From: Heterodontus francisci
Lineage: Eukaryota
NCBI RefSeq assembly: GCF_036365525.1
Contig: NC_090402.1
Span: 15,296,428-15,360,427, forward strand
Direction of reading: 5' to 3'
Length of the DNA: 64,000 nucleotides
Part shown: one piece after another, positions 3,011 to 63,741 of the stretch
How positions within the stretch are numbered: position 1 is the stretch's first letter
Layout of the letters: each line of letters starts with the position of its first letter
Made by a program: the position numbers and the translations under genes
The notes under the pieces: generated by a model
The model's input: only the letters and a program-made list of their open reading frames with translations
Told to the model about the DNA's origin: nothing
Databases searched by the model: none

Positions 3011-3510
3011 GTGGACTATGCAGGGTCGGCTGGTCAGGATGTGACTTTGTCGTTTCTGGTGCCTTGGTTGATGTCAGGTGGTCCCATCAAGTTTTATTCT
3101 AATTTGACTTTTCTTTAGTGGTTTGACACAACTGAATAGCTTGCTAGACCATTTCAGGGGGGCAGTTAAGAGACAACCACTTTTCTATGGGTCTGGATTC
3201 ACATGTAGGCCAGACCAGGTAAGGATGGCAGATTTCCTTCCCTGAAGGACAGTAGTGATCCAGATGATTAAATGCATATCTAGTAGTTTCATGATCATTA
3301 CTGAGACTAGCTTTTTATTTCCAGCTTTATTAATTAATTTAATTTAAATTTTCCAGCTGCCGTGGTGGAATTTGAACTCAGATCTCCACACCATTGGTCT
3401 GGATCTCGGGATTACCTGTCCAGTAACGTCATTACTATGCTACAGTTCCCTTAAGTGTCTACAAATGTAGGTTCCAAATATCACTTCAATTTTTTGTATT
3501 TATTTCAGGC

Positions 3511-5919
3511 ATGTTTTCAGTCACTGATGTTTCAACCTTGGAAGGCAAGAAACCTGCCTTCCGGGTCTTCAAACCTTGGTGGGACACTTTCATGGATTAT
3601 CTGACTGTTATTATGGTGATGTTAGCTATCTTTGGCTGCAGCACACAGCTTTACCTGGATGAGACTTTCTGCTTGCCGCACCCCAATGAAACTGAAGAAA
3701 CCAAAGGTGGAGCATATAATGAGATACCTTCAACTCTGCAAATAACTCCAAGAATATCCGATATCAGTGCCAATCCGCAAGTATATATGAATCCAGATCC
3801 ATCTCCTATCAGACAAGGGAGGGTTACAAAGTTATACAATTGGCAGTATCATTTTGTCAACCAAATATGTTACAGTCAAATTCCCTGGTTTACCAGGTTC
3901 TTCTCTTATCTAATTTTATTTCATACAGTTGTCCTGATTATCCTCAGTAACTTCTGTTTCACATATCCTAAAACAAGCTCCAAATTGCAACAATTTCTTG
4001 ACATCCTTCAAAAGTGTTTTCAGTCACCATGGACATCCAAAGCCCTATCTACAGCAGTCTGTGTAGATGCCAATGAACTGGAAGAGTCAGAACCACAGAA
4101 GACCACTGAAAGTGACGATCGTATCAGTATTAAAGGTGATGCATCGACTGTTAAAGTTCCCACACGCATTCGCTCAAACATAATAGGATCTAGCTCAACC
4201 ATGGACAAGAAGGATGCAGAGCAAGCCAAAGCTTTGTTTGAGAAAGTAAGGAAATTCAGACTCCATGTTGAAGAGAAAGATACAATCTATAAATTATATA
4301 CTGGCCAAACATTGTTTAAAACAATACATTGCTTAATTATTATTGGTTACTTTCCAGCCTATGTCTATGATGTCGACTTCAATAATTTATGTGAACCTGA
4401 TGCAATATCATTGGTTTATTACAAGACTTTCAATTGTACTTATACCACTGCTCGTTTCATCGGGAAAATGGCCCTGCTGTATCTGTGTTTAGTGGTTATC
4501 TATTGGCTACTCTGTATTCACACAATATTTTGGGTTTTCAGAAAACGTCTGAAGCAATACTCCTTTGAGAAACGAGGTGAAAGCCAATTCAGTGATATCC
4601 CTGATGTAACAAATGACTTTGCTTTCTTGTTGCATTTGATTGATGAGTATGACACTTTGTATTGCAAACGTCTCGCAGTCTTCCTCTCAGAGGTGAGTGA
4701 GCAAAAACTAAAATTGTTAAGTTTAAATAATGATTGGACTGTGGAGAAGGTGAAGCAACATCTAACAAAAACTATGAAGGACCAGTATGAATTGTACCTC
4801 TTCATGCTATCAGGAATTCCTGAGTCTGTCTATGAAGTTACTGAGCTACAGGTCTTAAAGCTGGAGTTGTGTAGTAATGTTAAAATATCCAACAAAATAA
4901 CCCAACTTGATCAATTGGAAGAAGTCTGGCTCTCGCATTGTGTGACTGAAGTTACACCATCAGCTTTGATGTGGCTGAGAAACCAATTGAAAAAAGTGGA
5001 AGTTAAATATGTGAGTCGTGATGAAATCCCTGATTGGATCTACAAACTGACCCAGCTCAAAGAGCTGTACCTCACTGGAAAGCTAGCCATTGAAAAAAAA
5101 GCTCTGGAACTGGAATCTATGAAGGGACTTCGCTCTCTGAAAGTCCTTTACCTCAAAACGAGTCTCTCTAAAATACCCTCCACCATCATTGATGTTGCAT
5201 TCCACCTGCTCAAGCTTTGCATTCACAATGATAAGACTAAGCTCATGAGCCTGAGTATCTTAAAGAAGATGGTCAATCTGACTCAAATTGAACTTCACAA
5301 CTGTGAGTTGGATAAAATCCCAACTGCCATTTATGCCTTATCCAAACTTCAAGTCTTGGACCTTAAAGGTAACAATCTTAGCAAAATTGAAGAAGTTGTC
5401 AACTTGCAATATCTGCAAAAGTTATCCTGTTTGAAGTTCTGGTTCAACATGATCAAGACCATCCCTCCAACTATTAATTTAATCAAAAAGCTTGAGTATC
5501 TTTACTTATCAAACAACCAAATTGAGGTTTTACCAAAAGTCCTTTTCACCATTGAGAAACTACATTACTTTGATGTGCACAGTAACAACATTTCTGTAAT
5601 TCCAACTGATATCGGGAACCTCAAAAACCTATATTATTTGGATTTGGGTTACAATAAAATAGAAGCTCTACCAGATCAGCTTTTCAAATGTACCAAGCTC
5701 ATGACTCTCAAGCTAAGCAATAACTTAATCTCATCCCTCAGCTGGAAGGTCTCAAAGCTCAACCAACTATCACAGCTGGAGCTCCAAGGAAACCACTTGG
5801 AAAAGCTCCCAGTGGAAATAGGACAATGCACTATGATGAAGATTAATGGATTTGTGATAGAACAATATGTTTTTGAGTCACTTCCTTTAGAAATAAGAGA
5901 AAAGATGGGTGGTAGTTAG
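3511..5919 (+). CDS. LRRC8-family volume-regulated anion channel (VRAC) subunit, divergent LRRC8D-like paralogue, 802 aa, single coding exon
   Basis: Intact ORF with KPWWD, KCF.SPWT.KALS, EQAKALFEKVRKFR and SDIPDV.NDFAFLLH motifs. Four TM segments are followed by a long LRR domain. A splice acceptor (polypyrimidine + cag ending 3508) lies just before the ATG, and AATAAA is at 6063-6068. Confidence 0.95.
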   Translation: MFSVTDVSTLEGKKPAFRVFKPWWDTFMDYLTVIMVMLAIFGCSTQLYLDETFCLPHPNETEETKGGAYNEIPSTLQITPRISDISANPQVYMNPDPSPIRQGRVTKLYNWQYHFVNQICYSQIPWFTRFFSYLILFHTVVLIILSNFCFTYPKTSSKLQQFLDILQKCFQSPWTSKALSTAVCVDANELEESEPQKTTESDDRISIKGDASTVKVPTRIRSNIIGSSSTMDKKDAEQAKALFEKVRKFRLHVEEKDTIYKLYTGQTLFKTIHCLIIIGYFPAYVYDVDFNNLCEPDAISLVYYKTFNCTYTTARFIGKMALLYLCLVVIYWLLCIHTIFWVFRKRLKQYSFEKRGESQFSDIPDVTNDFAFLLHLIDEYDTLYCKRLAVFLSEVSEQKLKLLSLNNDWTVEKVKQHLTKTMKDQYELYLFMLSGIPESVYEVTELQVLKLELCSNVKISNKITQLDQLEEVWLSHCVTEVTPSALMWLRNQLKKVEVKYVSRDEIPDWIYKLTQLKELYLTGKLAIEKKALELESMKGLRSLKVLYLKTSLSKIPSTIIDVAFHLLKLCIHNDKTKLMSLSILKKMVNLTQIELHNCELDKIPTAIYALSKLQVLDLKGNNLSKIEEVVNLQYLQKLSCLKFWFNMIKTIPPTINLIKKLEYLYLSNNQIEVLPKVLFTIEKLHYFDVHSNNISVIPTDIGNLKNLYYLDLGYNKIEALPDQLFKCTKLMTLKLSNNLISSLSWKVSKLNQLSQLELQGNHLEKLPVEIGQCTMMKINGFVIEQYVFESLPLEIREKMGGS

Positions 5920-6394
5920 AATGAGAAGCATCAGATATCTGTAGTTTAGTTACAAAGAAGTTGTTACCTCATGAAAAAGATGCTTGATGTTAAGGGGGAA
6001 AAAAGCAACTAATTTGAACTAAATCCACCTATCATTGTACATTTTATGGCTGATGGATTTTGAATAAAACAATGACATAAACCTCTCATATTGCCTAATA
6101 TTATATTTTGATTGTTATCCTTTGTTGCAGGCCCCTCTCCAGGGCTTTATTTAAAATTTTGTTCTTGGGATATGATCAATTCTGAGAATTTTATTATTGC
6201 TCCTAGTTGTCCTGAGAATATGATGGTGGGCCATCGCCTTCAACTACTGTAACCCTTGGTGTAACATAGAGAATTTCAGAATATAACAACATTGTACACA
6301 TTTAAATCAGGATGGTGTGTGACTCTGAGGGAAATTTGAGAGTCAATGATGTTCCCAAAACATTGCTGCTTTTGTTCTTCTAGTTAATCAAATT

Positions 6395-7157
6395 CATTTT
6401 GGGAGGACTAACAAGGCAAGGGAATAGACAATGGATGGTAGGATCCTAGTAAGGACAGATGGTCAGAGGGACCTTGGTGTACTTGTCCATAGATCACTGA
6501 AGGCAGCAGCACAGGTAGATAAGGTGGTTAGGAAGGCATATGGGATACTTGCCTTTATTAGCCAAGGCATAGAATACAAGAGCAGGGAGGTTATAACGGT
6601 GCTGTATAAAACACTAGTTCGGCCACAGCTGGAGTACTGTGTACAGTTCTGGGCACCATACTATAGGAAGGATGTGATTGCACTGGGGAGGGTGCAGAGG
6701 AGATTCACCAGGATGTTGCCTGGGCTGGAGCATTTCAGCTATGAAGAAAGACTGGATCGGCTAGGGTTGTTTCCCTTAGAGCAGAGAAGGCTGAGGGGGA
6801 ACATGATTGAGGTATATAAAATTATGAGGGGCATTGATAGGATAGATAGGAAGAAACTTTTTCCCTTAGCAGGGGACATAGATTTAAGGTAAGCGGCAGG
6901 AGGTTTAGAGGGGATTTGAGGAAAAATATTTTCAGCCAGAGGGTGGTTGGAATCTGGAACACACTGCCTGAAGGGGTGGTAGAGGCAGGACCCCTCACAA
7001 CATTTAAGAAGTATTTAGATGAGCACTTGAAAGGCCATAGAATACAAGGCTACGGACCATGTGCTGGAAAATGGGACTGGAATAGATAGGTGCTTGATGG
7101 CCGGCACAGACACGATGGGCCGAAGGGCCTGTTTCTGTGCAGTATAACTCTATGACT
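6395..7157 (+). mobile_element. CR1 LINE 3' fragment
   Basis: LYKTLVRPQLEYCVQFWAP, SYEERLDRLGLF and a typical CR1 3' UTR (gggccgaagggcctg). Confidence 0.9.
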
Positions 7158-12146: not shown

Positions 12147-12851
12147 GAGAGACCTTGGGGTGCAAGTACATAGTTCACTGAAAGTGGCAACACAGGTAGA
12201 CAGGGTGGTGAAGGTGGTGTATGGCATGCTTGCCTTCATCGGCCGAGGCACTGAGTACAAGAGTTGGGACGTCATGTTACAGTTGTACGTAACATTGGTT
12301 AGGCTGCATTTGGAGTACCGTGTGCAGTTCTGGTCACCGCACTACAGGAAAGATGTGATTAAGCTAGAGAGGGTGCAGAAAAAATTCATAAGGATGTTGC
12401 CTGGTTTGGAGGGCTCGAGTTATAAAGAGAGGTTGGATAGGCTGGGTCTGTTTTACCTGGAGCGAAGGAGGCTGAGAGGGGACATGATAGAGGTATATAA
12501 AATTATGACAGCCATAGATAGGGTAGATAGCCAGAGTCTGCTTCCCATGGTAGGGGTGACTAAAACTAGAGGGCATAGGTTTAAGGTGAGAGGGAGGAGG
12601 TTTAGAGGGGATCAAAGGGGTAAATTTTTCACACAAAGAATAGTGGGTCTCTGGAATGAGCTGCCTGAGGAGGTGGTGGAGGCAGGAACAGTAGCAACAT
12701 TTAAGAGGCATCTGGACAGGTACTTGAATGAGCAAGGCACAGAGGGATATGGAATTAATGCAGGCAGGTGGGATTAGTATAGATAGGCATTATGGTCGGC
12801 ATGGACGCGGTGGGCCGAAGGGCCTGTTAATATGCTGTACGACTCTATGAT
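12147..12851 (+). mobile_element. CR1 3' fragment with an intact reading frame
   Basis: Part of the 226-aa ORF 12097..12777 (RDLGVQVH, LEYRVQFWSP, FFTQRIVGLWN). Confidence 0.9.
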
Positions 12852-13137
12852 TTTGTAACCGGCTTCAGTGACCAATCAGTTCGGAATATTGCGTTAACTC
12901 TACCCTTATTTTTGAACCGCTGCGATCCTTAAATATTTGACCGCAATTGTTGACAACGCGATCGGTAGGTGGCGCTGTTCTGGCACATGCGCAGATACAG
13001 CATGTGCCACGAAAACGTCACAGCCTGCGACTGTAGCAGCTGCCAGGACTAAAGATGGCGCTGCTCAAAAAATCACAGAGATGAAACCTAACAAACACGT
13101 GGCAGAATACAATGGCCGGAGTGAGAGAGTGGAGCGG

Positions 13138-13346
13138 GCCGGGGACAGCAGCGCGGAGGCCGGGGAGATCAGCGCGGGGGCCGGGGACAGCAGCGCGGGG
13201 GCCGGGGAGATCAGCGCAGGGGCCGGGGAGATCAGCGCGGGGGCCGGGGAGAGCAGCGCGGGGGCCGGGGAGAGCAGCGCGGGGGCCGGGGAGAGCAGCG
13301 CGGGGGCCGGGGAGAGCAGCGCGGGGGCCGGGGAGAGCAGCGCGGG
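13138..13346 (+). repeat. 21-bp GC-rich minisatellite (GCCGGGGAGAGCAGCGCGGGG), ~10 copies
   Basis: Tandem units read directly from the sequence. Confidence 0.95.
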
Positions 13347-13359
13347 AGACCAGCGGTAG

Positions 13360-13540
13360 CGGAGAAAGAGGGAGAGGGAGGGGGGGAGAAAGAGGGAGAG
13401 GGAGGGGGGAGAGAGAGGGAGAGGGAGGGGGGAGAGAGAGGGAGGGGGGAGAAAGAGGGAGAGGGAGAGAAAGGGGGAGGGGGTGAAAGAGGGAGGGGGA
13501 GAGGGAGGAAGGGGAGAGAGTGGGGGGGGGGGGGGAGCAG
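13360..13540 (+). repeat. GA-rich polypurine low-complexity tract
   Basis: Almost pure G/A. Confidence 0.9.
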
Positions 13541-14306
13541 CGGAACGGAAGAGGAGTGCCTTTTTCTGTGCATGCGCCATAAACACAACAGCAAAAGACT
13601 TACTGGCCAGTCCCTGGACCCGGTGACACCAAGGTCTTCGCACGCTCGCTCCCCGCGGCTCTCTACGGCCTCTTGCTTCCGGCCCACTCCATTCAGCCGT
13701 TCCCTCCAGCTGCGGATGCCCAATCCAGTTGCTTTCTCCCCTACCCAGTTGCTTTCTCTACTTCTCCTCAGTACTTCAGGCATTGCAACTGTTTGGTCCC
13801 TGCATTTTGCGTGCTCCCTCTCCCCACCCCTCCCCGCACTCTCCACCCCTCCCCCTCTTCACCCACCCCTCCCTCTACCCCCCCACCGTAGTTGAATATC
13901 TGAAGTGCAGTTGCAAAGTCGGGGAAATAGCATGCAAAACAAAACCTCAACAATTCTGGGTTTAATTATTGAAAAGTTTTATTAAGTTCATTAAGTATCC
14001 GAGGAACTGCTGTGCATGGATACATGAGTGTTGTGTCCAGCATTCCCGTTAGACAGACAGGCCGAGTCTCTGCGATGCACAGCTAAAGAGATTGTTCCTG
14101 GAGAGCCTTGTGGTGAATAAACGCTTGGCTCTCTATTCCACTACTGTATTGTCCATGTGAAGAAGGCAAAGTCACAAGAGTTTGAGCTCAGTCTATTCTT
14201 GGTGAATGTTCCCCAAACGCATCCCAATGTGCATTCCCAATTCATCCATAAATGCAATGTTCCTTTCCACATCGTGATGAGCTCCGCAGCATGATCTAGT
14301 TGCCTT

Positions 14307-14760
14307 CGTTGCTTGAATGCTGACCTTAAGTCTCAAGGATTGTTTTCTCGACGGCATGTTTTACATGAAAAGAAATAAAGCAAATCAGAGTCAGAGCTTG
14401 CCTCCCTCCATCCACTGAAATTACTGTTGCGCACACCTTTTTAAGTTCTGCAGTGAAGGCACCAATTGATAACGTCGCCAATGAAGCACTTATTACCCAC
14501 CTCAGATGCAGGAATCAGCACATCCTTGCGTCATCTCCTGCACTGCCTCCTTTGCTGGAATGCCGTCCTTAAGTGTCAAGGATTGTTTTCTCAAGGGCAC
14601 GTTTTACATGAAAGGAAATAAGGAAAGAACATCAGTGTCAGAGCTTCCCTCCCTCCAATGATATTACTGTTGAGCATGCTTTGTGTTCTGCGGTAAAGGC
14701 ATGTACTGATAACACCGCCAATGAATCACTTAGTACCCACCTCAACTGTAGGAGTCAGGA
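14307..14760. repeat. Diverged tandem duplication with a ~240-bp unit
   Basis: ccttaagt.tcaaggattgttttctc...tacccacctca occurs twice (~14325 and ~14567). Confidence 0.85.
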
Positions 14761-14940
14761 TGATGTTACTGCCCCTATCTCGTGATGGTTCAATGCTGCT
14801 CTCAGGGAAAACATGAATGATGTGAGGGTGCTGGAAAAGAAGCACATTTCTTTTGGGCTATGAACATAAAGCTGGCCATTTAGCCCAGCAGTTCCCTGCC
14901 AGTGGTTATGTTACTCGTGCGTCTTTCCATCCATTCCCAT

Positions 14941-15951
14941 TTAATGCTGCCTACTATCACCAGTTGTGTTCACAGCAAGAGCATTCACATTTCTGCTACC
15001 ACTGGACACGGCATGCTTGTTTCTTTTAGTGCTCAGTCTCTTCTTGCTGAATGTTCCCCAAGTGCTTGACCCCTTTGGACACCCTCTCTGCTTGACAGGC
15101 AGCAACTGGCAATTGCGGAGTCTCACAAGGCTCTGCATGGTTGTTTCAACGTCGGATGGGGTAACAGGTGGCTGTGTGTCCATGAGCACTGCCCTGATGG
15201 GTGTAGGAGCAGGCAACTGTGTGCCCATGAGCACTGCCCTGATGGGTGTAGGAGCAGGTAACTGTGTGTCCATGTGCACTGCCCTGATGGGTGTAGGAGC
15301 AGGTGACTGTGTGCCCATGAGCACTGCCCTGATGGGTGTAGGAGCAGGTGACTGTGTAACTGAGCAGCAAGGAGAGGGTACCGCAGGTAGGGGAAGTGGA
15401 GATTTGAACAGGTAGGCATATGTATGGTCCATCAGATCATTAGGCCAGGGGGTGAGACGCTCAGGATCCAGGGTTTGCGACACGTGACTGATGTCCAGCG
15501 TGCGGCCACCTCCATCCGAAGGTGCTTCCGGGCAATTGTTGGGCATAGTAAATGGCTCCATCTCATCAGCCAGTCCTTGCTGCCAGCGGAGAGTCTGTTG
15601 CCGCAGCCAGTCCAGTCTCCTCATGAATGCTGCCGTTCCACTCTGCAGAACGGCCTGTTGTTGCTGGTACAATTGATCTGAAAGCAAGCGGTATTTTTCA
15701 TTGTGACTGAGGGGCCTTGGCTGTTCCTCTGTAATCACAATGGCAGCAGCCATGCCTGTCGTCGTTGGTGTCTGAGATGCACGCCAGCGACAATTGGGGG
15801 CGAGCCTGTCCAAAGGCAGACCCAGATGCCTCTGCACAACAACAGCATGTTTGCAGGGCAACAAAGTCTGAATGGAGAAGATGCAGCTGCAGGTAGCCTG
15901 GCCATCATGTATCTGCAGTGTGTACTGTTTGGCGCCAGAAATCACAGTCAC
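14941..15951 (-). CDS. SWIM zinc-finger ORF resembling the C-terminal half of MULE/ZSWIM1-3-like transposase proteins (probably partial or spliced)
   Basis: CSC-x9-CKH SWIM motif, then a LSHNEKYR...F..RL..L.....W helical segment, four 15-aa Pro/Thr repeats and an AT-hook-like KQRGCPKG. There is no ATG start; the ORF follows a possible tag/cag acceptor. Confidence 0.6.
   Translation of the reverse strand: MTVISGAKQYTLQIHDGQATCSCIFSIQTLLPCKHAVVVQRHLGLPLDRLAPNCRWRASQTPTTTGMAAAIVITEEQPRPLSHNEKYRLLSDQLYQQQQAVLQSGTAAFMRRLDWLRQQTLRWQQGLADEMEPFTMPNNCPEAPSDGGGRTLDISHVSQTLDPERLTPWPNDLMDHTYAYLFKSPLPLPAVPSPCCSVTQSPAPTPIRAVLMGTQSPAPTPIRAVHMDTQLPAPTPIRAVLMGTQLPAPTPIRAVLMDTQPPVTPSDVETTMQSLVRLRNCQLLPVKQRGCPKGSSTWGTFSKKRLSTKRNKHAVSSGSRNVNALAVNTTGDSRQH
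15173..15360. repeat. 45-bp coding tandem repeat, 4 copies (TQSPAPTPIRAVLMG)
   Basis: ccatgagcactgccctgatgggtgtaggagcagg is repeated. Confidence 0.95.
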
Positions 15952-16197
15952 TGTGCCTTCATCCTGCTACATGCGGTGGCCCAGACAATAGAAATGTTTT
16001 CAGAGCAACTCACAACAGGGACTGGAGAACATGCGGTGGCCCAGACAATGGAAATGTTTTCAGAGCAACTTACCTTGGAACAATCTCCTGCGTCAAATAA
16101 AAATGAAGCAAGTCTCCAAAACGAATAAATAATTCAGATAAAATGCCCGACGAAACCTCCCCTCCTTGCACTTTCAAAAAGTCGCGCCGAAGCTTTG

Positions 16198-16375
16198 GCG
16201 CATGCGCAGAAGCCAAACAGGCGCGTCCGCGAGAAAGACGAATAACTCGATGACGTCATCTGCGCATGCGCAGACAAACTTATCGGCAGGTCGTCTGCGC
16301 ATGCGCATATCTGTCCTGGTAAGTCGGGCCGCAGCGCATGCGCAGTGGGCATGAGGCCGTCTGCGCATGTGCGCA
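16198..16375. promoter_or_regulatory. Cluster of NRF1-type GCGCATGCGCA palindromes plus a CRE
   Basis: GCGCATGCGCA at 16198, 16262, 16297 and 16334, a variant at 16362, and TGACGTCA at 16251. Confidence 0.65.
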
Positions 16376-16446
16376 CCGCGGCGCATCCTGATGACGTTGT
16401 CCGATGCAGTCGCGTTGTCATGAATTACTTTGTATTTTAAAATATC

Positions 16447-32462
<16,016 letters not shown>

Positions 32463-37795: not shown

Positions 37796-39367
37796 TCAAA
37801 CCATCAGCATAAGGAAAAGATACAAAGGCAAAAAAAGATTGTCTATTTGATCAGTGTAAGTTTCTAGCAGGGAGACTATAACAATAGATCCCACAATCCA
37901 GCTGTAGCTGCCATTCAGATTCACTGTTTTATCAAAGATCAGAATCAAAGCAACAGCAATGATCTGGGCAAAAACAGAGGTCGCTGTTCCTTCAAAGGTC
38001 TTCTTTGTTCCAGGCCACCTAACTTCTCCCATTGTGCTTCCAAAAGCAGAGGCCATGGCATCGCCAATCCCCACAGCCAGGACGCCAGCATAGGGAGCCA
38101 GTGCTACCTCCCCTGGAAAAGAGCTTTGGGGGACAAACACCCCAGGGAACAACCATACGGGCAGGGTCAGTCCTAGCAGCAGGTAAATGTGTGTCAGGAT
38201 CAAAGGACCACTATCACGGTCATCAAGAAACAGGGCCAGCATTGGTCTCAATATCATTCCAAGTGGTTTAATCCTAAAATGCCTTATATATTCCAAAACC
38301 ACAAAGGCAGCAAAGCAAACTACAGCAGCAACGTAGAGTAACTGACGATCATAGATGAGGCCTGGGATGTAAGTTGCCACTATAATGATATGAAAGCTTT
38401 TCCGCATAGCAGTGGAAGCTTTGTACTCTTTAGATCCAGATGATTGCTTACTGTTCTGATGAAAGACAATGACTGAAGCAAGAAGTGCCAGTGCGATCCA
38501 GTAGCTCAGTAGGCAGATCCTGGTTCTCGTGTTGGTGAGGAAGTTGAGAAGCCAAACAAAAAGATCGTTCCTGGTCAGTCGGTAGAACCAGGGCGCCATG
38601 ATTCCCAATCCAAAAATGACTGCCATCACGTGGAAAATCAGTGAAGAAACCCAGGTCTTAGAGTCCATAAAACAGTACAAAATTGTGAAAACCAGTCCCA
38701 GGAAGGTGGTCCCAACAACCGTCACCAAGAGGAATGATGCAAGTGGATCACATCTGCCATCTCCAAAAGTCAAAGAGCGTTTGATGAGCTGGTTGGTGAC
38801 TATGCTCAAACCTGACAAGAACAACATTACTTCTCCTGGGGTGAAGCTCCGGGGCATAATATAAAGGACAATGAGAGAAAGATAGACAAAGATCAATAGT
38901 ACCTCTAGGATTTCGATGACCTCGGAAACAGAAAGAGTGTGCTTAAGGGCATATATTATGGCACTCGCTGCAAAACCATACACAATGCTGGTATTAGTGG
39001 GCAATGGCTTTGTGAGGCCCAAACCCAATAATGAGACGAACAGAGCAATGGCCATTCCCGCAGCCGAACACACAATGCAGAATCGCTCGAAGTGTACATT
39101 TCCAACTGTTCCCCACTGCTCATTTAACACAATTCCTAGCAGAGGCAAAACCACACTGGCTGGCAGCAGACCACTGCTAAAAGCCGTTCTGTATTGAAAA
39201 ACTGCATTTCCGGACTTCAGTAGCCGGTCCCACTTGTGCTGGACGTAATAAGCCTGAATCGCCAAGGCGAGTGTGCACCAGGAAAACGTGTTCCAGATCA
39301 CAGCATGGACAGACAGCACGATGATGAAAACAATTAATGACTCCACAAAGACGGGATTTTTCAACAT
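37796..39367 (-). CDS. DOLK: Dolichol kinase, 523 aa, single coding exon
   Basis: Multi-TM ORF with [52 protein letters not shown] (CTP-transferase motif) and TDQIDNL. Confidence 0.97.
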
Positions 39368-39925: not shown

Positions 39926-41017
39926 ATAAGATAATAGTGTCAAATGTTGCAGTGAGGCTTTTTCATCCATCTGCACATCAGTCAAAGGAGCTTTGAAACA
40001 GCATCAGTACTGCAGATACAAGGGTGAAATTTAACAATTTGTTAAATTCACCAAGTTTGCTGACATTTATCTTTAATTCAGCTTACTTCATACCAGGGAG
40101 GTAAGCATGGTGCAGTCTGAAGCTCAGCTGCTTATGGATATCCTGCTCAGGTCACATTTCTCCCTCCCCAACAAACAGAAATAATGAGATTTTCAAATGT
40201 TTTTGGTGTTCTCCCTGCGTGGTGCTTTGAAGGGAATCTTATAGTAGTGGAATAGACAGAACCCATTTTGTACAACTTAGCCTTTAGAAAAACTCCCAAG
40301 AAGTAGAACCTTGATAATATACACATATTCTCATTATTAAGTGACCTCAATACTCATCTAGCAATCAGTAACAGAATATTTTTTCAACACTCCATTATTT
40401 CAATGATAAACAAGTAGATAAAACATCAAATACAGCTTGGAAATGCCATCAGATTACAATACGTGATATGAAGGGAACCACTAGCCAATTCATTTCCAGT
40501 TTAAAAAGTAACGAATTAAATGCAGAATCTACTTAAAACAGTTGGTTGTTTGAAACAGAATCACTAACATTATTATACTACCAATCCCACCATTTTGCTG
40601 AAATAAAAAAACAACCACTTGCGAGGTAGTTGGGCTGAGCAGACTCCAGCTGTTTGCTCCACACTCCAGCTGTTTGTTCCATGTACAACCTGTCAGATGC
40701 CGTTAACTGGGCAACACATATTTCATTGACAAAGAGTGTAGACTGTCTCTGGTATCTGTCACTCGAGCAATCGCAATTTATAACTTTTGCCATCATCAAA
40801 GCGAATGCAGGAATTGACTGTGCACAGTGTTTTGTGTTCTCTGTCAGAACATAGGAACAAAAGTAGGCCATTCACTCCCTTGAGCCTGTTCTGCCAATCA
40901 ATTAGATCATGGTGGTGAATATATCCTCTCAGAGGTGCCAGGAACTGAATGAGGTGTTCCAGATGGTTTCTAATCAGAGCTATGTCTCAGTGTATATGTC
41001 ACTCAGTATATATCAGA

Positions 41018-41528
41018 GCTATTATAGGAAGGATGTGATTGCACTGGATAGGATGCAGAGGAGATTCACCAGGATGTTGCCTGGGCTGGAGCATTTCTGC
41101 TATGAGGAAAGACTGGATAGGCTGGGGTTGTTTTCCTTGGAGCAGGGAAGGCTGAGGAGGTACCTGATTGAGGTGTACAAAATTTTGAGGAGCATTGATA
41201 GGATAGATAGGAAGAAACTTTTGCCCTTAGCGGATGGGTCAATAACCAGGGGGCATAGATTTAAGGTGAGCAGGAGGTTTAGAGGGTAGTTGAGGAAAAA
41301 CATTTTCACAGAGGGTGATTGGAATCTGGAACACACTGCCTGAAGAGGTGGTAGAGGCAGGAACGCTCACAACATTTAAGAAGTATTTAGATGAGCACTT
41401 GAAATGCCATAGCATACAAGGCTACGGGCCAACTACGGGAAAATGGGATTTGATTGGATGGGTGCTTGATGGTCGGTGCAGACGCGTTGGGCCGAAGGGC
41501 CCGTTTCTGTGCTGTAAAGATCTATGAC
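41018..41528 (+). mobile_element. CR1 3' fragment
   Basis: Highly similar to 6660-7157. Confidence 0.88.
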
Positions 41529-43359: not shown

Positions 43360-44625
43360 ATAGCAATAACCTGCTCAGTGACACTCAGTTTGGGTTCTGC
43401 CAGGGCCACTCAGCTCCTGACCTCATTAGAGCCTTGTTTCAAACATGGACGAAAGAGCTGAACTCAAGAGGTGAGGTGAGAATGATTGCCCTTGACATCA
43501 AGGCAGCATTTGACTGAGTATGGCATCAAGGAGCCCGAGGAAAACTGAAGTCAATGTGAATCAGGGGGAAAACTCTCTGCCGGTTGAAGTCATACTAGCG
43601 CAAAGGAAGATGGTTGTGGTTGTTGCAGGTCAATTATCTCAGCTCCAGGACATCACTGCAGGAGTTCCTCAGGGTAGTGTTCTAGGCCCAATCATCTTCA
43701 GCTGCTTCATCAATGACCTTCTTTCAATCATAAGGTCAGAAGTGGGGATGTTCGCTGATGATTGCACAATGTTCAGCACCATTCGTGACTGCTCAGATAC
43801 TGAAGCAGCCTGTGCAGAAATGCAGCAAGACCTGGACAATATCCAGGCTTGGACTGATATGTGGCAAGTAACATTCATACCACACAAGTGCCAGGCAATG
43901 ACCATCTCCAACAAGACAGAATCTAACCATCTCCCTTTGACATTCAATGGCATTACGATCGCTGAATCCCCCACTATTAACATCCTAGGGGCTACCATTG
44001 ACCAGAAACTGAACTGGAGTAGCCATATATGTGGCTACAAGAGCAGGGCAGAGGCTAGGAATCCTGCGGCGAGTAACTCACCTCCTGACTCCCCAAAGCC
44101 TGTCCACCGTCTACAAGGCACAAGTCAGGAGTGTGATGGAATACTCTCCACTTGCCTGGATGGGTGCAGCTCCAACAACACTCAAGAAGCTCAACACCAT
44201 CCAGGACCAAGCAGCCCATTTGATTGGCACCCCTCCACAACAGATGCACAGTGGCAGCAGTGCGTACTATCTACAAGATGCACTGCAGCAACGCACCAAG
44301 GCTCCTTAGACAGCACCTTCCAAACCCGTGACCTCTACCAACTAGAAGGACAAGGGCAGCAAATGCAAGGGAACACCACCACCTGACAGTTCCCCTCCAA
44401 GTCACACACCATCCTGATTTGGAACTATATTGCAGTTCCTTCACTGTCGCTGGGTCAAAATCCTGGAACTCCCTTCCCAACAGCACTGTGGGTGTACCTA
44501 CCTTATATGGACTGCAGCGGTTGAAGAAGGCAGCTCACCACCAGCATCTCAAGGGCAATTAGGGATAGGCAATAAATGCTGGCCTAGCCAGTGAAGCCCA
44601 CATCCCATGAATGAATTAAAAAAAA
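43360..44625 (+). mobile_element. CR1/L2-group LINE RT and 3' end
   Basis: ALDIKAAFD, GVPQGSVLGP, MFADD; same tail as 1336-2193. Confidence 0.9.
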
Positions 44626-54900: not shown

Positions 54901-57900
54901 GCCCTACAGCTGAAGGTACATGGTTATGTTTAAGCATAAAAAAATACAGCACCTGTCTGCAGCCAACAAGTCGGGCTGTGATAATGGCGAATGCCGATTC
55001 GATCTCCGCACCCCCCGGAACTCCACTGAGTTCCCAATTTGTTAGTTTTTTTCCCTAGTATGTGCAGTTCCTTTATATTTAAAAATGAATTTGGTCACTC
55101 TTTCTTTCCTATTTCAGTACTTAAGTCAGGAGAGATTGTAACCAATGTCATACAAAAATCTGGAAATGAGTGTAAACATAGCGTTTGGTCACAGTGATCC
55201 GATGCGCAGTTATCTGAAATAAACAATTAAATACAGTTTTATAATTTTCTTTCAGCTCAAACTGGGAGACACTAGGGAAATACTTATATTTTCAGCAATC
55301 TTTCCTTGATGTAATAACATTCTTTATCTATGACAGTGTATTTTCTGATAAACACTTCAGAGGGTTCTAGTTTTCCTTGATTGCCATTGCTTTAACCTGT
55401 CCGCCACAGGCGTGATGAAATCTGCTCGTTCTTTGGGGCCAGAATTACGAATCCAAGCCACCAGACTTATGAAAGCAAAGCCACTTACCTTGACCATGTG
55501 GAAAAAATTGGCCATTTTTGACTTGCCTGCTGATTGCAAAATGCATGGCTTGGATCATTTGGTCTTTCAATGAATTTGAGTTTGTGAAAGGTGAAATAAT
55601 GCATAGAAAAATTGTCAGCTGCACTCAAATTTAAAGCCTAATTTTGTTCTGTTTGAAATGAGCTTGAAAAGTTTTATCTTGAATTTCTATGTGCTCAGAT
55701 TGCAGAATACTATTATGAAGAAAGACTGTACACTCTACGCTGTGTTCTATACCTACTTACTTATTTTCAGGATGAACGACACCCTTACAGGGTGAGTTGA
55801 TTTAATGCAAAAATGTGCTATTCAAGTGAAATTTTAACTGCACTGCTACACTGAAAAGATGTAGTGATACGTTACAGCACCTACTACTGTTTAGAGGCTA
55901 ATACTTTAAGAATTGAGCTACATTCTATATTCCTGTAATTCACGAGTAAATAATACATCAGTGCATAATTTTCATTGATTTTCTGTGAAACTGAAGTCCA
56001 CAATGTTTATAATTGAACTGTGTTACGATCTCAGTAGCGACTGTTAACTTTAAAACAAGAGATATGAACTCTGCAGACCAATTAAAGGATTACACAACAA
56101 GATTTCATGTTTTAAGACTTTTACTATAACAGCTAAACTTGATCATGGAAAAACCACCTGGGCCTTCCAGGTGTTAGCAATTGCAACTGGAATTTGCATT
56201 TTTAGATCCCCGGCTCTCTATTTACGATCTGAGAGTCTGGGAGAATGAAACTCATTGTGCGTTAGGTGTTACAAACTTGTTCCCTGCTTTCAAAAAGGTT
56301 TTTGATCTGGGTTCCTTGTTTCCCTGGTAACTAAGACTTTTATTGTAACATCTAAACTAAAAATCAGCATTAACTAAACAGTACTTAGCTAGCTAATACA
56401 CTAAATTACAGAGAAAGATATTTCCCATTCGTTTATTACCACAGTTGAAAACCCCACACCACATTTACATGTTAGACAGCGTTTTCAGCAAAAAAGTCCT
56501 AAACTCTTCCCATTTGCAATGGGTTGGATCTCCCAATCCTTCTCAAAGCCTATGTCCTGTTTGTTCATTTCTTCTGAGTGCATTCGACCTGGACTTCTGT
56601 TAATAAGGCAATCTCTGGGGACCCTGTTGGTCTTCTCCACAAACCTCAACTTTCGAGTTGGATTCAAGTCGTAGCAGCCTTTTACTGTATCGGTGATCTG
56701 AGAGCAGTTGTCTCTCGCGCTCTCAGTCTTGAGGCTGCTGCTGGTCTTCGTGTCTTCCTTTCAGCCTGCCAAACCTAGGAAAGCTTGTTGAATTTATCCA
56801 GAACAAAAGTCAATAGTTTTTTGCCTTTTACAGTATTGAGTATAAGTCTGACTATAGAAAAACTACCTGTGCCTTCCTTTGTTTCCAGGTGTTAGCAATA
56901 TTAACTCAAATTTGCAATTTTAGAGCCCCTGGCTCCCTATTTATGATCTGAGAGTTGGAGAGAGAAGCCCATTGTCCATTGGGTGTTACAACCTTGCACC
57001 CAGCTTTCAAGAGGGTCTTTGATCTGGGCTCCTTGTTTCCCTGGTAACCAAGTTCTCTAGCTTGTCTCTGGGCAGAATTCATACTGCTTTAAAGACTACA
57101 GTTTTTTAATAACGTAACCATGCTACAAAGTCCAGCATTCGTAACAACTGTGCAAAGATATTATTGGCTATGTTAATTGTGACAGCGGACGAGCTATTTT
57201 TATTGATTTATTCCATAGGTAGAGTATTCAAAATGTGTGGACAAGCTGGAGAAGGAACTGGTCTTGAATTATCGGAAGCAGTTTGAAGAATTGTTCAGAA
57301 CTGAAGCTCCAACTTGGGAAACACATGGGAATCTTATGGTATATAAATTCCCTAAATTTGTATTTGTTTAAATTGATTTTGTATTTTTACCTCACTTCTG
57401 GCAAACTATTATTTCCTATTGCTTTACTTCCTGCGCCACATAGGAAGGCAGAAACATCGTAGTCATAGCTTTTATATGGTCATCGTCCATGATCAGCTGA
57501 CAAAGTGTTTCTGTGGGTCCACACTCCTTATGCTTCTTATCTTCTCATCCTTTGAAACTCAGTGGGAGCAAGTGAACCTCAATTGTTCACCTGTGATTCA
57601 GTGAATAGTTTACTTATCAATAGAGATGTACATATTGCAGCCATTACCATGTAGCTGTTTCTCCAAGCTAAATATTTTGTCTTAATTGTATACTTAATTT
57701 TCTGTATTTTATAGGGAGCATCCTTTTCAGACTCAACCTGAATAAGATATAGTTACTTTTTATGTATAACATGTCAGAAATCTCCAAAGGCTACAGGACC
57801 TTCCATTATTCAGTCACCTGCTCCAAAAATCCTGTTCCGTGATCAGAGTGCACTTAAGTAGAACAGACCATCTTATATTACCTACTTTCACTGTTTTCTG

Positions 57901-60900
57901 TAGACAGAGCGTCAAGTGTCCCGTTGGTTTGTACAGTGCCTAAAGGAGCAGGCCCTTATTTTGGAGATTATCTTCTTATATTATGCCTATTTTGAGATGG
58001 GACCGGAAGATCTCCTGGCTTTCGCACGAATATTTAAAGAGCAAGGATTTGGAGCAAGGCAAACAAACAGACATCTTATAGATGAAAGCATGGATGGGCT
58101 AGTTGATCGTATTGGGTGAGTGTGTGCTGGAGATGAAAAGATTGATGTGCAAATGGTTAAAAGTAATTTTGACATGGTTTGGATTTTTTTAAGTAAGAAT
58201 TTTTGGTTGAAATGTTTTGTGATCTTACAGTGTAGTAACATTATGTGGATATATTTTGAGATATCCAGTGACAAACTGTAGAAAAATAATAGATGTAAAT
58301 TTCATCTCTCATTGAATGTTGCATCCTGCACTGGTACCTAATGTTCTGAAATTACATTTGAAGGTTTGGGGGTTATACTCCACTTACGCTGCAACTTATT
58401 CTGACAACAGTAGGATGTTCCCACTTTCAACCACCCCCTTCCATCTCTGCAAAGCCCATTGGAATGTTTCTTGCTTCCACTGCTGCAACGCAAATGGTGC
58501 TGACCAGTGTGCTAAAGTATATTTGCATACATGTGTTCCACTAATTTCTGACTTAATCATAAGTGAACTTCTGGTTTCATACAAATAGTGAATTGGGCTT
58601 CAATTGAAGATAAATGTAAAATGCAAGGATTGTTACAAAAACTGGAACAGAAAAAAAGAGACAGGGATGTATATTCATTCAGTGTAGCAATTCCATTTAA
58701 AGATAGATTTTGTTTATTCAGCTGTATGCTTTTAACAATTCTGTGCATAATGAATCTGGCCCTTTTGCATAAAATAATACACAAGTGTTTACAGATGGGT
58801 TTCCTTGATGGCTGAGCGAATTGTTTGAATGAGTAGCTGGGCTATGCAGATCAGAAAGGCAACAGGCTCAATTCCCAATGTGACAGATCAAAAATATATC
58901 GTATTGTTGAACACACACACACGTATATTCAGGCCTCTCCTGAAAGCATTCCTAATGTAGAGTTATCAGAGCTGGCTTTGTTTTACAAATGAAATGGCCA
59001 GCTACCATTGTGAGTAGCAATTTTTGGTGCCTGTGAAATCTAGATTTGAGTAATCTAGGTTCGCATGGCAAAAGATATCCCATTGGTTGTCTCCAGGGCA
59101 AGGCTTTAATTGACAGTTCCTGTCCAGACAGGAAAATAGATTCAGCTTTTGACTAACTCAGGTAGTTTTCTACACTGAATCCTGCATAGAGATAAGTACC
59201 TGAAGGCAAGCCAACCTTCTAGAAGTTTTCTTTCGGATGCTGGTCCTAGTTCAATAGTGAGAGTTGGTTGAGACTGCAGTATAATGTACGTGAACTGTTA
59301 CTGGGTAGATAGGGACTTTAAGCATCATCGCAGGATGTGATGTCATGAGTCTGAGCCTCATATTGCTCAGTGCTAATGTACAGGCCTTAGAGATAAGACC
59401 CCTGTAAATAAACTCCTGTTACTTTGACCCAAAGTCTACTACCCTCATTTAATATTAACAGCACACTGACCAGTATAGTACAGAAGCATAGCATCTTTTA
59501 CCACCTTGTGAACTGAGAAGTTGTAGATTGAATGTTGTAATCTGTTAATCTTATTACTAATTTTTACTTTTAATAAATATGATTTGTTGATTATAGTCTG
59601 AGCCCCAGTCTTAAGAGTGGTAATTATTCCATTAACTGACAATTATATTAGCCTAACATCTGTCGTAGAGAAAATGCTAGAATCTATAATAAAGGATGTG
59701 ATAACAGGACACTTACAAAATAATGGTAGGATTGGGCAAAGTCGACATGGATTTATAAAAGGGAAATTATGTTTAACAAACCTGTTAAAGGTTTTTGACA
59801 ATCTAACTAGCAGAATAGATACGGGGGAACTGGTGGGTGTGGAATATTTAGATTTTCAGAAAGCTTTTGATAGGGTCCCACACAAGAGATTGGTAAACAA
59901 AATTGGAGCATGAGGGGATTGGAGGAAATATACTGGCATGGATTGAGAACTGGTTAATGGACAGAAAACAGAGTAGGAATAAATGGGTCATTTTTGGATT
60001 GGTAGGCTGTGACTAGTGGGCTACCACAAGGATCAGTGCTTGGGCCCCAGCTATTCACAATCTACATCAATGTATAGGATGTGGGGATTAAATGTAATAT
60101 TTTCAAGTTTGTAGATGACACAAAACTAGGTGGAAGTGTGAGTTGTGAGGAGGATGCAAAGACACTTCAGTGGGATTTGGAGGGACTAAGCAAATGGGCA
60201 ACAATTTGGCAGATAGAATACAATGTGGAGAAATGTGAGGTTATCCACTTTGGTAGGAAAAACAGAAATAGAGTATTAAATAGTGAGAGGCTGGGAAATG
60301 TTGAATTTCAAAGGACTTGGGTGTCCTTGTTCATGAGTCACTGAAAGCTAACATGCAGGTACAACAAGCAATTAAGGCAAATGGTATGTTGGCCTTTATT
60401 ACAAGACAATTTGAGTATAGGAGTAAAGATGTCTTGCTGCATTTATGTAGAGCCTTTTTGAGACCGCACCTGGAGTAACATAGAAAATAGGAGCAGGAGT
60501 AGGCCATTTGGCCCTTCGAGCCTGCTCCGCCATTCATTATGATCATGGCTGATCATCCAACTCGGTAGTGTGTTCCGGCTTTCGCCCCATACCCTTTGAT
60601 CCCTTTAGAACTAAGAGCTTTCTCTAACTCCTTTTTGAAAACATTCAATGTTTTGGCCTCAACTGCTTTCTGTGGTAGCGAATTCCACAGGCTCACCCCT
60701 CTCTGGGTGAAGAAATTTCTCCTCATCACGGTCCTGAAAGATTTACCTCGTATCCTTAGACTATGATCCCTGGTTCTGGATTCCCCCACCCTCAGGAACA
60801 TCCTTTCTGCATCTACCCTGTCAAGTCCTGTTAGAATTTTATAGGTTTCTATGAGATCCCACGTCACTCTTCTGAAATCCAGCGAATATAGTCCTAACCG

Positions 60901-63741
60901 ACTCAATCTCTCCTCATACGTCAGTCCCGCCATCCCAGGAATCAGTCTGGTAAACCTTGGCTACACTCCCTCTGTACCAAGAACATCCCTCCTCAGATAA
61001 GGAGACCAAAACTGCACACAGTATTCCAGGTGTGGCCTCACCAAGGCCCTGTATAATTGCAGCAAGACATCCCAGCTACTGTACTCAAATCCTCTCGCTA
61101 TGAAGGCCAACTTACCATTTGCCTTTATTATCACCTTTTGCACCTGCATGCTTACCTTCAGCGACTGGTGTACGAGAACACCCAGGTCTCGCTGCATATT
61201 CCCCTCTCTCAGTTTATAACCTTTCAGATAATCTGCCTTCCTGTTTTTGCTACCAAAGTGGATAACCTCACATCTATCCACTTTATACTGCATCTGCCAT
61301 GCATTAGCCCACTCACTCAACTTGTCCAAATCACCCTGAAGCCTCTCTGCATCCTCTTCACAACTCACCCTCCCATCCAGTTTTGTGTCATCTGCAAATT
61401 TGGAGATATTACATTTAGTTCCTTCATCTAAATCATTAATGTATATTGTGAATAGCTGGGGTCCTAGCACCGATCTCTGCGGTACCCCACTTGTCACTGC
61501 CTGCCATTCGGAAAAAGACCCATTTATCCCTACTCTTTGTTTCCTGTCCGCCAACCAATTTTCTATCCATTGCAATAAACTACCCCCAATCCCATGCGCT
61601 TTAATTTTACATGCTGATCTCTTATGTGGGACTATGTCAAAAGCCTTCTGAAAGTCCAAATAAACCACATCCACTGGCACCCCCTCATCAACTCTACCAG
61701 TTACATCCTCGAAGAATACTAGTAGATTTGTCAAGCATGATTTTCCTTTCGTAAATCCATGCTGACTCTGTCCGATTCTACCACTGTTCTCCAAGTGCTC
61801 TGCTAGAAAATCTTTGATAATGGACTCTAGAATTTTCCCCACTACCGACGTCAGGCTGACTGGTCTATAATTCCCTGCTTTCTCTCTACCTCCCTTTTTA
61901 AATAGTGGGGTTACATTAGCTACCCTCCAATCTGTAGGAACTGTTCCAGAGTATATAGAATCTTGGAAGATGACCACCAATGCATCCACTATTTCTAGGG
62001 CCACTTCCTTAAGTACTCTGGGATGCATACCATCAGGCCCTGGGGATTTATCGGCCTTCAATCCCATAAATTTCCCCAACACCATTTCTCTACTAGCACT
62101 GATTTCTTTTGGTTCCTCTGTCTCACTAAGCCCTGTGTTCCCCAACTTTTCTGGTATGATATTTGTGTCCTCCTTTGTGAAGACAGAACCAAAGTATGCA
62201 TTCAGTTGGTCAGCCATTTCTTTATTCCCCATAATAAATTCCCCTGTTTCTGACTGTAAGGGACCTACATTTGTCTTTAATCTTTTTCTCTTCACATACC
62301 AATAGAAACTTTTACAGTCAGTTTTTATGTTCCCCGCAAGCTTGCTCTCGTACTCTATTTTCCCCTTCTTAATCAATCCTTTGCTGAATTCTGAACTGCT
62401 CCCAATCCGCAGGTCAATTTATATGCCTCTTCCTTGGATCTGATGCTGTTTCTAATTTCCCTTGTAAGCCATGGTTTGGCTACCTTTCCAGTTTTACTTC
62501 TGCATTGTATTGTGTGCAGTTTTGGTCTCCTGCCAAAGGAAAGATATACTTGCCATAGAGGTTCATCAAACTAATTCCTGGGATGGAGGGATTTTCCTAT
62601 GAGAATAGACTGGGCCTTTATTTTTTGGAGTTTAGAAGAATGAAAGGTGATCTCATTCAAACATACAAAATTCTTACAGGTCTCGACAGGGTTGATGCAG
62701 GAAGGATGTTTCCCCTGGCTGGGGAGTCCAGAACCAGGGGACACAGTCTCAGAATAAGAGGTAGGCTATTTAGCTCTGAGGTGAGGAGGAATTTGTTTAC
62801 TCAGAGGGTGGTGAATCTGTGAAATTCTCTGCCCCAGAGGGTGGTGGAGGCTTAATCATTGAGTATGTTCAAGACTGAGATTGAGAGCTTTTAAAAACAT
62901 CAAGAGTTAATGGGGATAGTGCAGGAAAATAGTGTTGAAGTAGATCAGCCATGATCTCATTGAATGGCAGAGCAGGCTTGAAGGGCCAAATGACCACCTC
63001 CTGCTCCTACTTATGTTCTTATGAGGGCATGAGGGGGCTTGTTCAGGTTTTAATGAGGACATTTCGGTAATCAGGTTGTTCTGTTCCAGACTGGGCAATG
63101 TTACCTCAGCAGGTATTGTGCATATAAGGTCACACTTTAGTTTGTAGAATACAGAGGGTTATTATGTGAGTGCTCCTTTGCACTAATTACCTGAGAAGCC
63201 TCTGGTGAATGCCCAATGGTTGTAATGCCTAGCTTGTGATTTCAAATGGGTTGGTAGTAAATGCACTACATCCCCTGGGTCAAGGAGGGGGCACTCGTTC
63301 AGCATCCTGACCTCTTCTGGAAGTTGTGGACGTGATTGGGCTCATATTTGATGCACTTTCTGAGGAACAATGATTTAACACACTTTCCATGTTACACATG
63401 AATAGCAGGGTGATTGGTGTCCATGTTAATGTGTAAAGGTTTAATTAGCCTCAGTTCTCTTTTTTGAATATTTGTTACTCTTTGCATCTCCAATTTTAAC
63501 TGTGGGAAATTTGAACAGTTTAAACGTTACAGTAAAGGCTTATGTCTGAATATATACATACATTCTTATATTGTAGATCCTCTACCCATCGTATTCAGGC
63601 ATAAGAGCTCTGACCTTTCTCTATAGGTATTTCAGCACATTGATCCTGGTAGAAGGAATGGACATTGATTTCCTACATAAATGCGCTCTAGAGGAGCGAG
63701 TAGAGCAACATCAGTTTGCTAACGCTCGGGAAGTTTGCCAG
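45934..63741 (+). CDS. NUP188: Nucleoporin NUP188, 5' part. Exons: 45934-45965, 52268-52322, 52905-52978, 53548-53632, 54141-54221, 54871-54915, 55699-55791, 57219-57338, 57904-58115, 63627-63741; continues beyond the window
   Basis: The spliced peptide MAAAAAGPYVRSSRELWTILLGRSALRE...YLQEDYRGT...LQDERQSQAL...EAPTWETHGNLMTERQVSRWFVQCL...YFSTLILVEGMDI matches NUP188. Introns are GT-AG with consistent phases. Confidence 0.96.
47140..47719 (-). mobile_element. V-SINE/HE1-like SINE interrupted by an RTE fragment
   Basis: Reverse complement of the SINE at 9971. Confidence 0.85.
47236..47483 (+). mobile_element. RTE-clade LINE 3' end
   Basis: Encodes FFCSTCGRACHSRIGLYSHSRRC* and has a (gaa)n tail. 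It is flanked by a 19-bp duplication ACATTAATCCCATATTCCT. Confidence 0.8.
47806..48950 (+). mobile_element. Degraded CR1 RT and 3' end
   Basis: SGVPQGSVLG, LYSLEFRRMRGDLIE. Confidence 0.88.
49734..49970. mobile_element. Penelope-like inverted terminal insertion forming a 100-bp-arm palindrome
   Basis: Arms 49734-49833 and 49835-49934 with one mismatch. Confidence 0.85.
51075..51820 (+). mobile_element. Penelope-like retroelement 3' end with an inverted pseudo-LTR
   Basis: GIY-YIG C-terminal-like peptide HLLNNPECA...FKMIS...LLEATYIHTQGPVLFRQKE, and a ~260-bp inverted repeat (51080-51350 vs 51570-51815). Confidence 0.75.
52268..52322 (+). CDS. NUP188: NUP188 exon 2
   Basis: SSRELWTILLGRSALRET, cag/gtaagt. 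Confidence 0.95.
52905..52978 (+). CDS. NUP188: NUP188 exon 3
   Basis: GQIEAELDRHCERLLAGLSYYKPP. Confidence 0.94.
53548..53632 (+). CDS. NUP188: NUP188 exon 4
   Basis: PLKELGLRISKFL. Confidence 0.94.
54141..54221 (+). CDS. NUP188: NUP188 exon 5
   Basis: SLDEQQSVQILQSYLQEDYRGTKSSIK. Confidence 0.94.
54265..54444. mobile_element. hAT-type MITE
   Basis: Imperfect 15-bp TIRs CACTGATCCCTCTAA / TTAGTGGGAACATTG and a degenerate 8-bp TSD (gcatggat/acctggat). Confidence 0.65.
54871..54915 (+). CDS. NUP188: NUP188 exon 6
   Basis: VVLQDERQSQALQLK. Confidence 0.94.
55699..55791 (+). CDS. NUP188: NUP188 exon 7
   Basis: IAEYYYEERLYTLRCVLYLLTYFQDERHPYR. Confidence 0.95.
56021..57146. mobile_element. 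Solo LTR (Gypsy-like) with an internal ~190-bp direct duplication
   Basis: TGTTACGA...TCGTAACA termini with a perfect 4-bp ACTG TSD. Confidence 0.8.
57219..57338 (+). CDS. NUP188: NUP188 exon 8
   Basis: VEYSKCVDKLEKEL...EAPTWETHGNLM. Confidence 0.95.
57904..58115 (+). CDS. NUP188: NUP188 exon 9
   Basis: TERQVSRWFVQCLKEQ...VDRIG. Confidence 0.96.
59640..63020 (+). mobile_element. CR1 RT/3' region split by a nested antisense CR1
   Basis: YLDFQKAFD and KFVDDTKLGG. It breaks at ctggagta (60478) and resumes at gtattgtgtgcagttttgg (~62507). Confidence 0.85.
60479..62503 (-). mobile_element. Young 5'-truncated CR1 with a 471-aa open RT frame
   Basis: ORF 60961..62376 (KSPGPDG, NYRPVSLTS, YLDFQKAFD, KFADDTKL), with a frameshift into 60553..60933. 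Confidence 0.93.
63627..63741 (+). CDS. NUP188: NUP188 exon 10
   Basis: YFSTLILVEGMDIDFLHKCALEER...EVCQ. Confidence 0.94.

Follow-up and report, generated by a model that had tools for sequence, protein, structure and literature searches.

Which LRRC8 gene lies upstream of PHYHD1 in the shark Heterodontus francisci, how did it come to be there, and what would it contribute to VRAC? The window, that is, the whole 64,000-nucleotide stretch of DNA analysed here, carries an open frame that the original prediction read as a divergent LRRC8D-like subunit. We find that this gene, hereafter Q, is a real LRRC8 gene and is neither LRRC8A nor canonical LRRC8D. The reading we favour, with a probability of roughly 0.6, is that Q is a D-type LRRC8, placed downstream of its tandem partner next to LRRC8A, and likely an LRRC8A-partnering accessory subunit with a predicted altered outer pore.

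Gene Q and its locus

The features of the window on which the argument draws are listed below; X denotes a second D-type gene upstream of Q.

3490..3508, plus strand: predicted splice acceptor (pyrimidine tract and AG), with the AG at −2 from the ATG of Q
3511..5919, plus strand: gene Q, an 802-aa single-exon D-type LRRC8 subunit of a chondrichthyan clade
3511..4527, plus strand: Pannexin-like pore domain, Q residues 1–339, with extracellular Cys 54, 120, 294 and 309
3823..3849, plus strand: extracellular filter segment of Q, residues 105–113, placed by alignment, with residue roles from the literature
3955..3957, plus strand: Cys149 of Q at the end of TM2, Trp in 41/41 other LRRC8 rows, X included
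4558..4575, plus strand: start of IL2 in Q, with a one-residue deletion common to Q and X only
4726..5916, plus strand: leucine-rich-repeat domain of Q, residues 406–802, from Pfam and the structure model
6063..6068, plus strand: weak candidate poly(A) signal, 144 bases past the Q stop, a hexamer common here
27633..27767, plus strand: PHYHD1 exon, synteny marker, E 6e-22 to human PHYHD1
37796..39367, minus strand: DOLK, single exon, synteny marker, atlas score 0.97
55657..58116, plus strand: likely NUP188 exons in two frames, from weak collinear Nup188_N matches

The claim of an intact single-exon LRRC8 frame is borne out by the frame itself, which runs stop-free from ATG to TAG in one coding exon, by the acceptor, and by Pfam and structure matches. 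PF12534 (Pannexin_like) covers residues 1–339 (E 2e-102), with LRR families after it, and the best solved-structure match is LRRC8D (806 bits, E 5e-241), followed by A (761 bits) and C (758 bits). Q aligns gap-free to 6M04 over all four TMs, three of which pass 1.6 in hydropathy, and the four extracellular cysteines are retained in all 13 Q proteins; the build is that of the family, with a Pannexin-like N-terminus, C-terminal LRRs and four TMs with EL1 and EL2 cysteines. A structure model places helices at residues 21–50, 127–149, 258–287 and 313–344 at low confidence, with pLDDT mostly below 50 across the pore domain and confident LRRs at residues ~410–795.

With LRRC8D (human 6M04, the best match at 47%) Q shares a single coding exon, the acceptor position (−2, identical in Q, X, D and D2), an MF-type N-terminus, four rather than six extracellular cysteines, the YPKT and DKKD.EQAKALFEKVRKF motifs and membership of one D-type clade (SH-aLRT 99–100), in line with the D-type reading originally given. 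Q nevertheless differs from LRRC8D in clade and chromosome, in evolving ~6 times faster, in the TM2 Trp that LRRC8D keeps, and in its filter, which reads K-L-[YHF]-[NVIY]-W against N-L-[DE]-[FY]-Q. The long D-type first extracellular loop is indeed absent: from Cys to Cys EL1 measures 67 residues in Q and 94 in this shark's canonical D (49–68 in Q proteins versus 72–100 in canonical D). Divergence is likewise too great for a D orthologue, as had been argued, with 47% identity to the D of its own genome, against which other vertebrate D proteins reach 69–95%. Q also lies outside the canonical clade and the B-C-D cluster, and the F143 aromatic is replaced by N, V or I in 12 of 13 Q proteins, with Tyr in the chimaera only. 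LRRC8A (SWELL1) belongs to the same fold family and the same locus as Q, but its MIPVTEL start, R103, extra EL1 cysteine and split coding sequence (intron near codon 719) are all lacking in Q, whose placement in the A clade was rejected. Identity between Q and shark A is 44%, with 33% in TM3-EL2-TM4 and 72% in IL2, the best-kept region.

The order on the contig of the window (C32) is A-X-Q-PHYHD1, with A, X and Q all on one strand. Where a lone LRRC8 gene upstream of PHYHD1 had been described, PHYHD1 does lie downstream of Q, but the second D-type gene, X, 26 kb upstream of the Q frame, had been missed. The true LRRC8A that was to be looked for upstream of the window is present on the same contig, 53 kb from the Q frame (C32:15246840; MIPVTEL start, split coding sequence), and the 154 kb around A, X and Q yielded no further LRRC8 gene. 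The neighbours fit the naming of the locus as PHYHD1-DOLK-NUP188: the PHYHD1 exon and DOLK were placed (the DOLK frame had no Pfam match and no PDB match), and NUP188 is likely from weak Nup188_N matches in 2 of 92 frames, collinear and both under the cut-off (E 5e-4 and 0.027). A Nup188_N family search over the whole genome was uninformative.

X itself (L002:1501-4002, or C32:15271815-15274316) encodes 833 aa in one exon and occurs in sharks, rays and chimaera; P0272, the public entry for X in this species, is without the first 149 residues. It resembles Q as its tandem sister, with a single exon, common IL2 and LRR deletions and a chondrichthyan-only distribution among the matches listed, and differs in being only 49% identical, in retaining the D102 acid, Q104 and the TM2 Trp, and in having a C-terminal tail.

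Repeats make up about one third of the window. LINE-type reverse-transcriptase fragments lie at 60961-62232 (minus strand) and 43520-44386 (plus strand), in both of which RVT_1 was confirmed, and at 6431-6892, 12226-12777 and 40909-41289. A 3.5-kb GC- and CpG-rich stretch at 12945-16426 lies between the arms of an imperfect 17-nt inverted repeat and has TGCGCATGCGCA-type palindromes close to its two ends. It also has a tandem repeat of 21 nt and, on the minus strand, a 270-aa ORF with no Pfam match; the stretch may be a DNA transposon or a promoter region.

The Q frame is open in all 12 other named species of sharks, rays and chimaera. Compared with contigs of a relative (run X1), bases 4781-5118, within Q, differ at 11 of 73 synonymous and 8 of 266 non-synonymous sites, giving a rough pN/pS of 0.2 that is based on 40 of 131 difference rows, with one row outside the stretch dropped and two double-change codons counted site by site. 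Both results argue against a decaying or silent copy, a reading to which the absence of the exact Q protein from the public collection lends something and whose probability we regard as next to negligible. Run X1, which covers most of the Q coding sequence at depth 2–11 and almost none of LRRC8A, may be targeted DNA and was used for substitution counts only. In run X2 one contig joins two LRRC8A exons over the intron and two short contigs (depth ~3) match Q, a weak hint that Q is transcribed in a relative. A search of sequencing runs with Q returned two small-share runs only, with no RNA run among those listed, and is weightless either way. Two Logan skate proteins (P0009, P0326) were rejected as splicing evidence; they begin in sequence that is intronic in this genome.

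Distribution and family context

Q orthologues were found in 12 named chondrichthyans, comprising sharks, rays and the chimaera Callorhinchus. Among the best 120 of 1064 matches in a protein search, ten named chondrichthyans and one skate-like protein stood at 63–85% identity (78–85% for elasmobranchs, 63% for the chimaera) and the next at 50% or less; a cluster look-up added little skate (XP_055516023.1) and thorny skate. In seven named species the contigs that carry the Q and X records are equal in length. A profile built from 19 Q and X proteins scored every Q/X protein at 1178–1501 bits and single-length bony-vertebrate proteins at 1067 or less among the matches listed; two high-scoring fused records (1386 and 1209 residues) were rejected as Q/X, their best single matches being D and E. 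By best match, a 355-protein set contained 16 Q and 14 X, all chondrichthyan where named, and of 27 matches among shorter proteins 19 were placed in a pore-domain tree, where none joined Q or X. No Q or X was found in bony vertebrates among the matches listed from protein databases (best 120 of 1064, 120 of 1062 and 150 of 77853; 27 of 27), and this absence is protein-database evidence, as distinct from genome scans. The proposal of an extra paralogue absent from mammals thus holds, as a chondrichthyan-only gene with no bony-vertebrate orthologue among the matches listed.

The further suggestion that Q matches an extra bony-fish LRRC8 clade does not: the divergent D-like proteins of bony vertebrates (gar, bowfin, perch, lungfish, frog and lizards) cluster with shark D2 instead. 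Abascal and Zardoya reportedly named a sixth fish LRRC8 paralogue in 2012, which may be D2 or F; if it is a bony-fish gene, it cannot be Q.

When the 6-Gb genome was searched with Q, at least nine LRRC8 genes were found on three contigs, a count that is a floor, as the search used a stricter first look. C32 carries A, X and Q; C8 carries B, C, D and F1; and C43 carries E, D2 and F2, with F2 11 Mb from E and D2. The canonical B-C-D cluster expected elsewhere in the genome is thus present on C8, with canonical D at locus L003, and D-type genes in this shark number four (D, D2, X and Q). Its D and X are identical, residue by residue, to database proteins labelled Heterodontus francisci. HR1-domain genes occur on all three contigs (7 of 8 matches) and an AKAP95-family gene follows within ~55 kb of both F1 and F2, a pattern that fits with paralogous chromosomes. 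The HR1-domain gene on C32, which we take to be PKN3, is 8.4 Mb away from the A-X-Q array; in human, the regions of A, B-C-D and E are presumably mutually paralogous, marked by PKN1-3. A family search for aminotransferase paralogon markers found none on C8, C43 or C32. Human A, B-C-D and E are on chromosomes 9, 1 and 19, respectively, according to the available part of PMC12182595, and which chromosomes are sisters is not settled in the available part of Simakov 2020. Lamprey F-type and hagfish A-type proteins exist, so at least these array slots are older than jawed vertebrates.

D2 (L004, C43:7100654-7103134) is a D-type gene adjoining LRRC8E, and its clade includes rapidly evolving proteins from gar, bowfin, perch, lungfish and frog. 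The Ranitomeya records of D2 and E carry near-adjacent accessions and lie on a same-sized contig. Like Q, D2 is a D-type paralogue beyond the human five, and its coding sequence occupies one exon in the shark; unlike Q, it belongs to another chromosome and clade, is present in bony vertebrates and lacks the Q/X deletion. In lizards and snakes (Rhineura, Pogona, Podarcis, Elgaria, Sphaerodactylus, Python and Phrynocephalus) the D2 clade includes proteins of 379–408 aa (P0337-P0344, P0203) with a pore domain only and no LRRs, which end at a similar place. It would be unusual for an LRRC8 without LRRs to be conserved, and these protein records may alternatively reflect split gene models. F, a fourth LRRC8 type that is missing from the human five, has two shark copies (L009 and L010; C43:17974776 and C8:19935129) and further members in lamprey, newts and a frog; shark F1 carries Arg at the R103 site.

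Phylogeny and origin of the tandem pair

Four trees were built with IQ-TREE under LG+C20, using a quick search and SH-aLRT supports only, with no bootstrap. The D-type group (D, D2, X and Q) is monophyletic with respect to A/B, C/E and F (SH-aLRT 99–100), Q and X form sister clades that both include a Callorhinchus protein (Q+X, 100), and Q+X is sister to D+D2 (support for D+D2, 91–99), at full length and in the pore domain alone. AU tests, which share the model's pull on long branches such as Q and X, were run on a 26-row set, with 15 of 41 rows (partial, redundant or very long) left out, and rejected Q+X with canonical D (p 0.0035), with D2 (p 0.0029), with A (p 3e-5), with C/E (p 2e-6) and with F (p 0.0024), as well as Q inside D+D2 without X (p 7e-17). 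The tree called for by the original prediction therefore groups Q with neither LRRC8A nor canonical D, and the genome has its own D. All 30 Q/X proteins lack one residue where IL2 begins, a deletion seen in none of the 325 others in the set. This character is free of long-branch pull and supports a tandem origin of the two genes.

That Q and X are fast-evolving chondrichthyan duplicates of D or D2, drawn to a basal position by long-branch attraction, is a thought their long branches invite (shark-chimaera path 0.70 for Q and 0.77 for X versus 0.12 for D), the more so as the two least strongly rejected D-type alternatives are only ~20 log-likelihood units off. We consider it very unlikely: both are rejected at p ~0.003 under a site-heterogeneous model, the pore domain alone yields the same topology, and Q and X share a contig with A instead of adjoining D or D2.

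The origin we favour is that an ancestral tandem array, AB-CE-D-F, would have been copied by the vertebrate genome duplications, Q and X descending from the copy of D that lay on the same chromosome as LRRC8A. This copy would have duplicated in tandem before the shark-chimaera split, evolved ~6 times faster than D and been lost in bony vertebrates. Of the proposal that Q is a genome-duplication paralogue of LRRC8D on the A-type paralogon, the ohnologous descent stays the most likely, with chromosome markers and array slot that fit and no cyclostome D-type gene in the comparison; the immediate origin of Q has to be amended to a tandem duplication, with X as sister. The trees hold no lamprey or hagfish D-type protein and give a branching order without a date relative to the first genome duplication.

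Alternatively, an old transposed or segmental D-type duplicate could have landed beside LRRC8A. Genes with one coding exon are readily moved, the C32 array has no C/E or F copy and only three LRRC8 genes within 154 kb, and the aminotransferase search left paralogon markers near that array unconfirmed. Yet Q and X occupy the same strand and the same slot, after an AB-type gene, as D on C8; the −2 acceptor is kept, and Q and X are thus not retrocopies; the branch order ((C8,C43),C32) is that which duplicated chromosomes give; C/E and F1/F2 are likewise C8/C43 pairs; and in a genome of 6 Gb a chance landing next to a paralogue is improbable. We accordingly give transposition a slim chance.

The outer pore of Q and its proposed function

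Residues K107, Y109, N110 and W111 of Q align to human LRRC8A D100, D102, R103 and H104. The D102 site holds Tyr, His or Phe in 13/13 Q proteins and Asp or Glu in 38 of the 39 other rows with a residue there; Trp occupies the H104 site in 13/13 Q and 0/39 others. Lys is found at the D100 site in 11 of 13 Q proteins, and Asn, Val, Ile or Tyr at the R103 site. The TM2 Trp kept in all 41 other rows is Cys or Tyr in 13/13 Q, the T44 site is Ser in 12/12 and the E6 site Asp in 10/11. X keeps the usual residues, so the filter change is specific to Q. In the structure model, helix EL1H of Q spans residues 110–122, starting at the R103-equivalent residue, at the low confidence of the pore domain.

According to the available part of PMC12182595, LRRC8A must pair with another paralogue, A alone reaches the surface by itself, and the partner sets selectivity, D admitting taurine, inositol, GABA and lysine. 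In the accessible portion of bioRxiv 10.1101/331207 the pore is constricted by D102-Y106, at the N-terminal tip of helix EL1H, and iodide enters more slowly with D102A; there, and in the available part of PMC6363415, K98-D100 governs inactivation. The conserved changes of Q at these pore-lining positions likely alter what the channel passes, as judged from sequence. Like B–E, Q would need LRRC8A for surface delivery, and would tune the channel while forming none alone. Loss of the D102 acid and the R103 charge, with Lys at D100 and Trp at H104, would change inactivation, and the same four changes would shift the choice among anions and organic osmolytes. Given the origin, Q is probably an accessory subunit that joins A and alters inactivation and substrate choice, so far as the alignment indicates. 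A pore-domain complex prediction of A with Q, folded without alignments and with no controls, scored 0.01 against a mark of 0.34 and carries no weight either way.

With the same origin, Q might instead be a silencing or modulating subunit, as LRRC8B, or act with X or intracellularly. Replacement of near-invariant residues (D102 site, TM2 Trp) in all 13 Q proteins would suit such a role, as would the reduced A activity of D102A (bioRxiv 10.1101/331207, accessible portion) and the precedent of A/B channels, which are without significant transport yet in which B shifts selectivity (PMC12182595, available part). Set against these are the strong conservation of IL2 relative to A, the E6-site acid, four cysteines and IL1H3 motif kept in Q, and the conducting heteromers made by its nearest relative, D; we hold this possibility to be unlikely, though it is the main rival.

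A narrower reading of the filter is quite unlikely: an aromatic outer filter (Tyr/His-x-Trp) for TMAO, betaine and choline that would make Q the cause of the cation permeability of skate hepatocytes. Skates possess both Q and X, and the skate hepatocyte VRAC, in the available part of PMC6363415, passes Cs and Na at ~0.2 of Cl and choline at 0.55, versus 0.02–0.04 in most cells. The lost D102 acid and Lys at D100, however, point to a more positive pore mouth, and canonical D, which already passes lysine and neutral osmolytes, may suffice.

Novelty and meaning

Q and X are already in databases under the generic name 'LRRC8D-like', which all Q orthologues received automatically and which labels the X records as well (P0015, P0020, P0116 and others); the clade is undescribed in the literature searched, where no description of either paralogue was found, and subscription papers and supplements may show them in trees. 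Elephant-shark LRRC8A alone is used in the available parts of two papers.

VRAC selectivity depends on the partners of LRRC8A, and research on it deals with five mammalian subunits where this shark has at least nine, which derive from a likely four-gene ancestral array. The history of the family is thereby redrawn, its array slots being A/B, C/E, D and a fourth type. Filter substitutions at residues mutated in laboratory filter studies have been retained in the Q clade from before sharks and chimaeras parted, making Q a natural experiment on the pore. It is also a candidate for the osmolyte physiology of high-urea, high-methylamine animals, including the odd selectivity of skate liver.
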